Shown: positions 2,421 to 4,785, numbered from the stretch's first letter. The stretch is DNA of 6,437 bases from a virus (IMGVR_UViG_2671181134_000002:1-6437), one strand, 5' to 3'. The notes: generated by a model from the letters alone, not told the origin. Numbers and translations are program-made.

Positions 2421-2987
2421 ATGAACTATCCGACGATTGTTGACGGTATTGATTTTCGCCAACTGGTAACAGCGGCAGATGGCGAACCAATAACAGACTC
2501 TTTTCAGATCGCTAAGGCGTTTGGTAAGCGTCATGCGGACGTATTGAGGGCGCTGAAAAATTGCCATTGCTCTGAAGATTTCCGGAGAGCGCATTTTTGC
2601 GTTGCCGAAAAAATCAATGAGTTAGGGATTTTCGACAAGAAGCAGATTTACTACCGCATGGACTTTAGCGGCTTCGTTATGCTGGTTATGGGATTTAACG
2701 GGGCAAAAGCTGATGCCGTTAAAGAAGCCTATATTAATGCCTTTAACTGGATGTCCGCTGAACTCCGTAAGTTCAGTGAAAGTTATGAAGCTGAACGCAA
2801 CGCTGTAATGCTGGAGTACATGAAAGAGAAAGATGTTGCCAGTATGTCAGGTCGTTTGCTCAATCGCTGGGGCAGGGTGAAGAAGCCTCAGTTGCTGGCA
2901 AGGCTGGACAGGCTGGACAGGCTGGACAGGCTGGAGCAGCAGGGGCAGATTGCGTTACCCGGATTTGATAAAGGCATTTCAGCCTGA
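2421..2987 (+). CDS. rha: Rha-family phage regulatory protein
   Basis: 188 aa. N-terminal region (DGEPITDSFQIAKAFGKRHADVLRAL) matches the conserved Rha/ORF6 N-terminal domain as I recall it. Variable C-terminus carries an (RLD)n repeat. Confidence 0.8.
   Translation: MNYPTIVDGIDFRQLVTAADGEPITDSFQIAKAFGKRHADVLRALKNCHCSEDFRRAHFCVAEKINELGIFDKKQIYYRMDFSGFVMLVMGFNGAKADAVKEAYINAFNWMSAELRKFSESYEAERNAVMLEYMKEKDVASMSGRLLNRWGRVKKPQLLARLDRLDRLDRLEQQGQIALPGFDKGISA
2894..2938 (+). repeat. 9-bp tandem repeat GCTGGACAG inside rha (three perfect copies flanked by two degenerate ones)
   Basis: Perfect copies at 2903-2911, 2912-2920 and 2921-2929; degenerate copies GCTGGCAAG (2894-2902) and GCTGGAGCA (2930-2938). 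Encodes LARLDRLDRLDRLEQ in frame. Confidence 0.85.
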
Positions 2988-3177
2988 CATAGCCATGCGC
3001 CGTATCGTCGCCGTATTCCTGCATTAACAGAGACCGCAGCCCGACAGGGAGACTCCTCTGCGCGAGTGTGCGGGGATAATCAAAAACGATGCACACCGGG
3101 GTTTACCGCGTTAACGGAGCGCGGCGTTGTCCCCTCATAGTCGCCTGTCCGGTGCGATGGTGGAAGAAACCGAACGT

Positions 3178-3378
3178 TCATTTCTCGTTATTTTTCATGC
3201 TGGCCGGGCGCAGATGCGTTGCATCTGTTGCCAGCCTTCTCCTGCAGGCTTCAATAACCCACGCTGAAAAGTTACCGGACCCTTTATGCTCAAGGGCTAT
3301 GTTGATTTGTTCAATTATGTGATTGGGGAAACGGATATTGCGGGTTGTGGTTCTGCGGGTCCGGTTTTTCGATGACAT
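3178..3378 (-). CDS. Ribbon-helix-helix (Arc/MetJ/CopG-type) DNA-binding protein, reverse-oriented
   Basis: 66 aa. NIRFPNHIIEQINIALEHKGSGNFSAWVIEACRRRL fits the RHH pattern: beta-strand, helix A, a G-S-G-N turn, helix B (compare Arc NLRWP...NGRSVNSEIYQRV). AAGGA lies about 8 nt before the ATG on the minus strand. Confidence 0.6.
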   Translation of the reverse strand: MSSKNRTRRTTTRNIRFPNHIIEQINIALEHKGSGNFSAWVIEACRRRLATDATHLRPASMKNNEK

Positions 3379-3398
3379 ATTTATTTCCTTTACTGATT

Positions 3399-3408
3399 GT
3401 CATATGAC
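3399..3408. promoter_or_regulatory. Perfect 10-bp palindrome GTCATATGAC in the 41-bp gap between the divergent RHH and HNH start codons
   Basis: Direct reading of the sequence. Lies in the leader of both divergent genes. Confidence 0.3.
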
Positions 3409-3419
3409 GGGGATTTTAC

Positions 3420-3785
3420 ATGGCTGAGCTTCGTACACTCCAGAGCAGAATCAAAACACTGAATACCCGACGGGTGAATATTCTGAAGGGGGAACAGCGT
3501 CGTGTCAGTGGCAGTGCACGTGTTTCCCTCAAGCGTCATATCTGGCTCAGGGACGCCGGGCAGTGCTGTCTCTGTGGTCGTGTGGTTGACCTCTGTGACA
3601 GTGAACTTGATCACCGAATTGCACTTCAGTTCGGTGGTGGTAATGAGGAGACGAATCTCTGGACGCTCTGTACCGAATGCCATCGACAAAAGTCTGCTCG
3701 TGAAGCGGCGGGTGGTATGCCGGACCCGACGCTGCCGGAGGTGTCCGGAGGTAGTGGCAGAGCGGACGACATCATCGGACTGTAA
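3420..3785 (+). CDS. HNH endonuclease (phage packaging-associated)
   Basis: 121 aa. Two Cys pairs (CCLCG, CTECH) flank the HNH core SELDHRIALQFGGGNEETNLWTLCTECHRQK. Sits immediately upstream of the terminase genes, as in HK97-type cos phages. Confidence 0.85.
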   Translation: MAELRTLQSRIKTLNTRRVNILKGEQRRVSGSARVSLKRHIWLRDAGQCCLCGRVVDLCDSELDHRIALQFGGGNEETNLWTLCTECHRQKSAREAAGGMPDPTLPEVSGGSGRADDIIGL

Positions 3786-3876
3786 CCCGACCCGGGGGGG
3801 GATCATCCGGCGTAAAAAACGATCGCTCCGGACACCGCGCCCCCTCTCACGCAGAGAAAAAATTCCCGTTTCAGGG

Positions 3877-4004
3877 CAGTTAACATGTTAACTGGCTGCC
3901 CGGGCATTTTTGCGGTTTTTATCTTTATTATTCAGTTTGTTGTGCGGAAAAAATGTTAACTGGCTTTTTCAGCAAATGTTAACCAGGCAGCAGTTAACAT
4001 TTGC
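3877..4004. repeat. Array of GTTAAC-containing palindromes and inverted repeats; candidate terminase-binding / cos-proximal region
   Basis: 18-bp perfect palindrome CAGTTAACATGTTAACTG (3877-3894); TGCCCGGGCA palindrome (3897-3906); ATGTTAACTGGC (3953-3964); 12-bp perfect inverted repeat GCAAATGTTAAC (3972-3983) / GTTAACATTTGC (3993-4004) with a 9-bp spacer. Confidence 0.45.
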
Positions 4005-4074
4005 GGCATGAGACGCCGGGAAAAATGGGCTGAACCATACCCGGCTGAGTGCGTTCTGGACCCGGGAGGAGGCT

Positions 4075-4785
4075 GTGCTGACAACGCAAAAACGAAAATT
4101 TGCGCTGGCGCTCATGTCCGGGAAAAACAAAACAGCGTCAGCCATTGCCGCCGGTTATTCGGCGAAGACCGCCAGGGTTAAAGGCTCACAGCTGGCAAAA
4201 GATCCGGAGGTGCTTGCGTTTATAGCCCGTAAACAATGCGAGACGGTGGAGGTGGATGAGGTTCCTGTTTACCGGCAGAAAAAATCAGAGCAGGAGGATA
4301 AACCCCGTCGCCGTGAGGCGGCTGCAATACCACAGCCGGACGAAAACAATCCGGAGGTGCTTGCGTTTATAGCCCGTAAACAATGCGAGACGGTGGAGGT
4401 GGATGAGGTTCCTGTTTACCGGCAGAAAAAATCAGAGCAGGAGGATAAACCCCGTCGCCGTGAGGCGGCTGCAATACCACAGCCGGACGAAAACAATCCG
4501 GAGATGCCACCGTCCGCGGTGATGTCTCCTGGTATTGAATATATGGAGGATGGTCTTCCCGATCCGGTGAAAGCCATGGGGCGGATCCTGGTGGAAAACC
4601 TCTGCATTGATCCGAAACTGGCACTGGATGCGGCCTGGCGTCTGGCGCAGTTCACGCACCATAAAAAAGGGGATACCGGGAAAAAATCGGCAAAAGGTGA
4701 TGCCGCGAAAAAAGCGGCTAACCGTTTTGCTGTGCCACCGCCACCCCGACTGGTGGTGAATAACGATAATGAGGGAAACGGATGA
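4075..4785 (+). CDS. terS: Terminase small subunit (P27 / Terminase_2-type)
   Basis: GTG start preceded by GGGAGGAGG. N-terminus KRKFALALMSGKNKTASAIAAGYSAKTARVKGSQLAKDPEV carries the AGYSAKTA helix-turn-helix signature of this family. Stop overlaps the terL start as ATGA (4782-4785). Contains an internal 49-aa perfect duplication. Confidence 0.85.
   Translation: MLTTQKRKFALALMSGKNKTASAIAAGYSAKTARVKGSQLAKDPEVLAFIARKQCETVEVDEVPVYRQKKSEQEDKPRRREAAAIPQPDENNPEVLAFIARKQCETVEVDEVPVYRQKKSEQEDKPRRREAAAIPQPDENNPEMPPSAVMSPGIEYMEDGLPDPVKAMGRILVENLCIDPKLALDAAWRLAQFTHHKKGDTGKKSAKGDAAKKAANRFAVPPPPRLVVNNDNEGNG
4204..4497 (+). repeat. Perfect 147-bp direct tandem duplication (2 copies) inside terS
   Basis: 4204-4350 and 4351-4497 are identical base for base by my alignment. 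In frame, duplicating PEVLAFIARKQCETVEVDEVPVYRQKKSEQEDKPRRREAAAIPQPDENN. Junctions carry the 8-bp microhomology ATCCGGAG at 4202-4209, 4349-4356 and 4496-4503. Confidence 0.9.

Follow-up and report, generated by a model that had tools for sequence, protein, structure and literature searches.

The stretch of viral DNA analysed here (IMGVR_UViG_2671181134_000002:1-6437, 6,437 nucleotides, referred to below as the window) carries on its minus strand, just ahead of the packaging genes, a genuine gene, and its protein is strongly selected. The gene belongs to the catalogued, uncharacterised YlcI/YnfO (DUF3950) family as an ordinary member and does not represent a new kind of system. It is very probably a real family member of the ribbon-helix-helix (RHH) type. 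The reading we prefer, to which we give a probability of about one half, is that it encodes a stand-alone, Arc-like and probably self-regulating DNA-binding protein which is read against the late operon.

ORF calling on the window placed the gene at 3178..3378 (-), with its ATG at 3378. A Shine-Dalgarno sequence, AAGGAA, can be read on the minus strand 6 nt ahead of the ATG (3385..3390 in plus-strand numbering). The product has 66 aa, a mass of 7.6 kDa and a pI of 11.5. The divergent neighbour is the HNH endonuclease gene (3420..3785, +), the first gene of the packaging block, which was recognised by Pfam HNH (E 7.5e-7) and by the annotation of relatives; the two start codons share a leader of 41 bp (3379..3419, 32% G+C). 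A 99% identical prophage of E. coli is annotated in RefSeq with the same 41-bp gap, and the original prediction of a 66-aa minus-strand ORF 41 bp from the HNH start therefore holds.

Three profile collections assigned the protein to the same family: Pfam PF13132 (DUF3950) with 69 bits against a cut-off of 25 (E 3e-19), NCBIfam NF041551 (YlcI/YnfO) with 35.2 bits against a cut-off of 30, and phrog_949 with an E-value of 9e-33. The exact 66-aa sequence is present on 992 contigs. The DUF3950 family is narrow: clustering gives 660 groups at 90% identity and leaves 101 representatives at 50%, for the most part from Enterobacterales when contaminant records are left out. The 90 distinct homologues all have an intact ORF, of 50-175 aa overall and of 50-81 aa in all but four cases, with a common start and N-terminus, and the Shine-Dalgarno sequence is conserved as well. 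Our literature search found no experiment on any YlcI/YnfO family member, and YnfO was still among the uncharacterised K-12 genes in a 2024 list.

Comparison of the first 50 codons between the window and phage lambda gave 23 synonymous and 6 non-synonymous changes, a dN/dS of 0.03. Because one antisense frame has the same wobble positions as the RHH frame, the coding strand does not follow from dN/dS alone; it was decided instead by a stop-codon census over 80 distinct core sequences. The RHH frame was open in all 80, whereas the wobble-sharing antisense frame contained stops in the window type and in the Pantoea type, and no antisense frame was open everywhere in this set.

The conserved core, codons 1-50 (3229..3378, -), is the predicted RHH unit and is made up of a basic N-terminal arm, a strand (NIRFP), a helix at residues 19-32, the turn KGSGN and a second helix at residues 37-55; the variable C-terminal tail ATDATHLRPASMKNNEK and the stop codon follow (3178..3228, -), at the site of a mosaic boundary. 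An AF2 model built from 23 sequences had a mean pLDDT of 70, with 72-85 over residues 11-50. It showed an extended segment at 14-18 followed by the two helices, that is, the order strand-helix-helix, in a monomer that cannot show a dimer sheet. Foldseek against the PDB returned a list dominated by RHH proteins (ParD2, NikR, Rv0301, YiiF, Arc and MazE-mt1), all with E-values above 1, and the structural matches also included TacA1. Among 25 diverse family members, six weakly matched a HicB-like phrog (positions 99-155 of a 342-position profile, best E 1e-6), and two Arc-like repressor phrogs were each weakly matched by two members (E 2e-4). HicB antitoxins commonly carry an RHH domain at their end. 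A PDB sequence search with the single protein and with the 25-member profile gave nothing relevant, Pfam searches of the 25 members at E up to 1 gave no RHH family, and a viral fold library gave weak, mostly unnamed matches, a few of them labelled RHH or CopG.

The residue pattern is consistent with this fold. The strand T12-R13-N14-I15-R16-F17-P18 alternates between polar and hydrophobic residues, with I15, R16 and F17 invariant, and the turn G33-S34-G35-N36 leads into a second helix that begins with the invariant F37, S38, W40 and V41. The RHH fold is well supported but not proven; judging by the model, the first 50 residues most likely form an Arc-like RHH unit, and RHH is the best structural reading of the AF2 model, the Foldseek list and the weak PHROG matches, as had been proposed for this ORF. 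In such a unit, the polar residues of the strand would point outward and I and F inward, the two helices would follow, and the protein would dimerise and contact DNA through a two-stranded sheet.

To place the gene in its genomic setting, 175 viral loci were surveyed, of which 146 could be classified and the other 29 were satellites, contig edges or unclassified. The divergent upstream neighbour was an HNH gene in 87 and a Nu1-like small terminase (TerS) gene in 59, and these make up all 146 classifiable phage loci. The gap was 41 bp in HNH-type loci, some of which scored -19 via a longer alternative HNH ORF, and 388-395 bp in Nu1-like TerS loci. In E. coli K-12, ylcI of DLP12 and ynfO of Qin diverge from the Nu1-like nohD and nohA, respectively, across 388 bp, an interval that is where cos lies in lambda. 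A near-identical 66-aa protein (94% identical) adjoins either packaging type. In lambdoid phages, the DUF3950 gene is reverse-oriented within the one-directional late region and is the last gene before the packaging genes. The label "orphan" given to the gene in the original prediction was thus not upheld, as it belongs to a catalogued family and its position does not change among the classifiable phage loci surveyed, including lambda, DLP12 and Qin.

YlcI and YnfO are the closest known counterparts in kind: they belong to the same family, are about 87% identical to the window protein over the first 50 residues, and are likewise encoded in reverse orientation and divergently from the first packaging gene. 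They differ in that their neighbour is a Nu1-like gene about 390 bp off across the cos position, whereas in the window it is an HNH gene 41 bp away; the window gene also has a different tail and is not followed by a DUF1398 gene. Nucleotide similarity between the window and lambda, DLP12 and Qin begins precisely with the ATG and weakens around codon 50, and both the upstream DNA and the C-terminal tail are unrelated. C-terminal tails differ completely among homologues, and in close relatives the 3' flank splits into two unrelated classes 10 nt past the stop codon. What is conserved is the 50-residue core and its place just ahead of the packaging block, against the late operon.

Phage lambda itself has an intact 64-aa DUF3950 ORF at 48109..48303 (complement) of NC_001416.1, 199 bp from the right cohesive end, which it faces. 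This copy (L090 3110-3304) is 100% identical to K-12 YlcI and is unannotated in both NC_001416.1 and J02459.1. The "orf-64" of the lambda literature is lambdap73, a different ORF and not the DUF3950 copy. The family is conserved and strongly selected in lambdoid phages, in lambda itself and in two cryptic prophages of K-12; a role in repression or in modulating packaging, if established for a member, would close a gap in the picture of a phage that has been studied very thoroughly. Both the assignment to the RHH fold and the rule on gene position are of use, and the unannotated lambda copy is a convenient experimental handle.

The lambda copy was also seen about 200-390 bp from a contig end in many "genome" contigs attributed to unrelated bacteria, namely Streptomyces, Cohnella, Pseudomonas and metagenome-assembled genomes (L013-L040, L046, L065, L072 and others). 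With lengths of about 48.5 kb or about 3.5 kb, these contigs look like contamination of public assemblies by lambda control DNA.

The leader between the two start codons contains, as had been noted from the sequence, a perfect 10-bp palindrome, GTCATATGAC. It is located at 3399..3408, within 3380-3420, at -30..-21 from the RHH ATG and 11 nt ahead of the HNH ATG, and is a candidate operator. Perfect 10-bp palindromes are no more numerous than chance predicts in the whole window (7 against 6.3 expected); for any one 41-bp leader the expectation is only about 0.03. The DNA nearby has no further copy, even with 2 mismatches allowed. Among the 79 closest relatives, the perfect GTCATATGAC is present in 4 and an imperfect form in 75; GTCATATGGC is found in 62, the remaining close relatives have CATATA or CATAAG variants, and other lineages have GTCATATAAC or GCCATATAGC. 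No shared operator emerged from comparison of HNH-type with lambda-type upstream regions, whose common k-mers were at chance level, and the one 8-mer common to all four upstream regions compared, GCGTCATA, was not significant. The DNA-facing strand residues are identical in window-type and lambda-type proteins while the upstream regions are unrelated, so a common operator in the leader is not visible.

Promoter elements were sought in the same region. The scan called no promoter in the leader and found no good -35 element there. A -10-like hexamer, TAAAAT, preceded by TG and abutting the HNH start codon (3413..3418, -), is a candidate promoter element of the RHH gene which was missed by the scan because no -35 is present. 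An alternative sigma-70-like match, CTGACA-17-CAGAAT, lies inside the HNH gene (3480..3508, -); this site, the only promoter call of the scan, is weak, with 9 of 12 positions matched, and the region had two such sites where 0.8 would be expected. The surroundings of the RHH gene yielded no intrinsic terminator, RNA folding of the leader and of the 3' spacer was no better than in shuffles, and Rfam gave nothing credible over the whole window. Published evidence for transcription of homologues is indirect: the convergent genes ybcW and ylcI are listed as having transcripts that overlap in 50% or more of K-12 RNA-seq samples (PMC12288877), and ydfO, directly 3' of ynfO, is strongly inducible (PMC4077768); nothing usable was found in the literature on transcripts near lambda cos.

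Satellite relatives provided a second view of the upstream region. The DUF3950 family is present in PICI-like satellites (PMC13612085), and in enterobacterial PICI/P4-like satellites its gene is the sole reverse-oriented gene, located between alpA and the primase operon. In the 200 bp upstream of the satellite gene (loci L250-L265 and L050-L085), up to four GTGY-N4-RCAC palindromes occur at about -150, -100, -76 and -30 from the ATG. One of them starts at -50..-25 in 22 of 37 distinct satellite regions, against 0.39 in shuffles, and CACGTCAA (TTGACGTG on the other strand) is found in 32 of the 37. The array has the appearance of a divergent promoter-operator region directed towards the primase operon. 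Alignment at the ATG placed a -10-like TGTATAGT at about -39..-32 and a palindrome, GTGTnnnnACAC, at about -33..-22 in the satellites, shifting by a few bases between loci. The corresponding elements of the window, the -10-like TGTAAAAT at -43..-36 and GTCATATGAC at -30..-21, are in the same register, and the Shine-Dalgarno sequence then follows in both layouts. The satellite motif itself, GTG-N6-CAC, had one chance-level match inside HNH in phage-type regions and none in lambda, DLP12 or Qin. Since the window palindrome occupies the same place as the conserved inverted repeats of the satellites, it may have an operator role; by this analogy, an operator at the transcription start with the palindrome as its site is a reasonable but unproven proposal. 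If a family member proves to be a repressor or a packaging modulator, this might also explain how PICI-type satellites hold their main operon silent.

These features can be combined into a model in which the protein is a transcription factor made from its own weak leftward promoter, putatively located in the leader and the 5' end of HNH with TAAAAT as the -10-like element. The protein would bind near its own start, with GTCATATGAC as the best candidate site, and so limit its own synthesis. Because the candidate site is only 11 nt from the HNH start codon, the protein, once bound, could also impede untimely entry into the packaging genes during dormancy. That the protein acts as a DNA-binding repressor is in our view about an even prospect; that it has this specific site together with a gatekeeping role is rather unlikely.

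Among characterised proteins, Arc and Mnt of Salmonella phage P22 resemble the window protein in being small, with a basic arm, a strand of the form N-x-R-aromatic-P (NLRWP in Arc, NIRFP here) and two helices. Arc and Mnt (immI region) are encoded inside the late region, Mnt in reverse orientation. In sequence, Arc has no significant match with the window protein: hhalign set IRFP in register with the LRWP of Arc, with a probability of only 5.7%. The regulatory setting differs too. In P22 immI, an antirepressor is under RHH control, whereas the rha gene of the window is convergent and is usually absent in relatives. The two genes stand tail-to-tail, which puts the rha promoter at a distance of about 900 bp; only 10 of the 175 loci have rha as the closest classified gene downstream, and the stretches of lambda, DLP12 and Qin examined have no Rha annotation. 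As rha is convergent and so seldom the neighbour, the Mnt/Arc-antirepressor arrangement does not apply, and the suggestion that the protein represses rha was not supported. The best structural matches of the window protein are the RHH domains of ParD, TacA, the HicB C-terminal domain, NikR and PutA, from which it differs in having neither a toxin partner nor a ligand-binding domain.

The downstream side of the gene suggested another explanation, in which it is the first gene and the regulator of a leftward accessory (moron) cassette with varying cargo (DUF1398/YdfO, then bor and others), its C-terminal tail belonging to the cargo module; in the window, the cargo would have been lost and the regulator left. 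The nearest classified downstream neighbour does vary, being a convergent Rz or Rha gene, ybcW or a same-strand DUF1398 gene. DUF1398 (YdfO/YbcV) is the sole recurrent same-strand neighbour, found 41 bp downstream in 34 of 175 loci and in Qin; leftward p78/ybcV and bor lie further along the same strand in lambda and DLP12. Moreover, the tail type switches together with the downstream module, with the mosaic joint near codon 50, and ydfO is stress-inducible. However, more than 100 of the 175 loci have no same-strand downstream gene but only a convergent Rz or Rha gene, the window-type tail is found with two unrelated downstream flanks, and the invariant neighbour is upstream, not downstream. 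We therefore consider a cassette regulator unlikely. A database protein, P0164, reads as a fusion of DUF3950 with DUF1398; this fusion and the DUF1398 neighbours were noted at L011, L041, L042, L044, L188-L228 and L005 3757-4458.

A broader form of the regulatory model would make DUF3950 a missed regulatory layer of lambdoid phages and their satellites, an RHH "gatekeeper" made when the element is dormant and acting at the entry to the packaging genes. In satellites, it would bind the GTGY-N4-RCAC arrays at the divergent replication-packaging promoter. Its effect would be either to keep these operons silent up to induction or to disturb packaging by a rival or helper, as the P0189 fusion described below hints. 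We regard this extension as quite unlikely; if true, phage lambda itself would gain a new player, at 48109-48303.

A packaging-directed factor, acting on cos DNA, on the small terminase or on HNH proteins, was also considered. Such a factor might tune or block the packaging of its own phage, of rivals or, in satellites, of the helper. It would agree with the constant location of the DUF3950 gene next to the first packaging gene or cos and with its presence in PICI-like satellites. One satellite protein, P0189 (L006 4714-5103, 129 aa), consists of a DUF3950 N-terminus fused to a TerS-like domain that is 62% identical to residues 2-51 of the small terminase of the window; the element that encodes it is a PICI-like satellite with an integrase, an AlpA-like gene and a primase. 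Two characterised proteins provide parallels. TerI of Listeria phage phi10403S is encoded by a 65-aa reverse-strand ORF opposite the lytic operon, has its own promoter, is expressed in lysogens, is linked to packaging and binds TerS (bioRxiv 10.1101/2025.02.27.640495). Its likeness to the window gene is one of design only, with no sequence relation expected; TerI belongs to an early module, and its target is the TerS protein. Rpp of E. coli PICIs is a small satellite DNA-binding protein that re-aims the small terminase of the helper (PMC6739421), and the P0189 fusion suggests a comparable use in one satellite, although Rpp is a winged helix-turn-helix protein, not RHH, and is not a member of the DUF3950 family.

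Several results argue against packaging as the target. Near-identical proteins stand beside two unrelated systems, Nu1/cos-lambda and HNH/Terminase_2, which speaks against a type-specific terminase or cos target. The P0189 fusion is known from a single contig, PADLOC gave no match, and the fragment of the satellite with the fusion has no enriched GTTAAC array of the kind seen in the window. Lambda packaging can be reconstituted in vitro without such a factor. A packaging-directed role is therefore improbable, and the self-regulating DNA-binding protein set out above is preferred.

Some features of the packaging region were recorded on the way. Five GTTAAC copies lie at 3879-3998, between the HNH and small terminase genes, within ATGTTAAC / CAGTTAACAT repeats and inverted repeats. 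The whole window has 7 copies of GTTAAC against 0.94 expected, and the array probably represents cos or the region recognised by the small terminase. Inside the small terminase gene, at 4202-4507, 147 bp are duplicated in tandem (2.1 copies, 99% identical), which makes the gene product 236 aa long; close relatives are annotated with a 564-bp gene.

A further proposal held that the gene is the remnant of a toxin-antitoxin or immunity module. Beyond the RHH stop codon come 190 bp (2988..3177) without a supported gene, terminator or RNA family, followed by the convergent rha gene, and no gene of a toxin family was found downstream in the window or in relatives. ORF 2860..3096 (-), which shares 128 nt with rha and matches nothing in Pfam, is spurious; both this and the absence of a toxin partner had been anticipated in the original prediction. 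A 33-aa ORF at 3080..3181 (-), whose start overlaps the RHH stop codon as ATGA, is probably not a gene, since PHROG gave no match for it and over half of the close relatives have unrelated DNA in place of this flank. The RHH protein, DUF1398, Rha and the P0189 fusion all failed to match a defence model in PADLOC, and the solved DUF1398 structure, 2HH8, has no assigned function.

An antitoxin left over from a type II pair by deletion of the toxin would be in keeping with the frequency of RHH domains in antitoxins, the structural matches to TacA1, ParD2, Rv0301 and MazE-mt1, the weak HicB-like phrog matches, and the variable C-terminal tail, which may resemble the toxin-binding tails of RHH antitoxins. 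Against it, a toxin is neither present nor conserved, downstream neighbours differ between loci, and DUF1398, the one recurrent candidate, matches no defence-system model; in addition, the core is under strong purifying selection in loci that have no partner, unlike a decaying remnant. We conclude that the RHH protein is not an antitoxin, and that derivation from a type II pair is very improbable. Near the 3' end of rha, a 9-bp repeat, AGGCTGGAC (3.9 copies, 2901-2935), encodes (LDR)n, and it also creates a PACPAC run in the spurious antisense ORF 2860..3096.

Finally, that the ORF is not a gene at all, but an accidental ORF or one that merely shadows something conserved on the opposite strand, is extremely improbable: shared wobble positions and a long opposite-strand ORF overlapping the RHH gene in satellites could be cited in its favour, but the stop-codon census, the conserved start codon, Shine-Dalgarno sequence and N-terminus, the lack of any Pfam match to the overlapping satellite ORFs, and the coherent RHH-like model of the protein all oppose it.

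The wobble-sharing frame antisense to the DUF3950 core tends to stay open, as at 3089-3322 (+) in the window and 3451-4278 (-) in the satellite locus L250, and in satellites it reaches up to 275 aa. This frame could be miscalled as a gene, and it confounds dN/dS tests.
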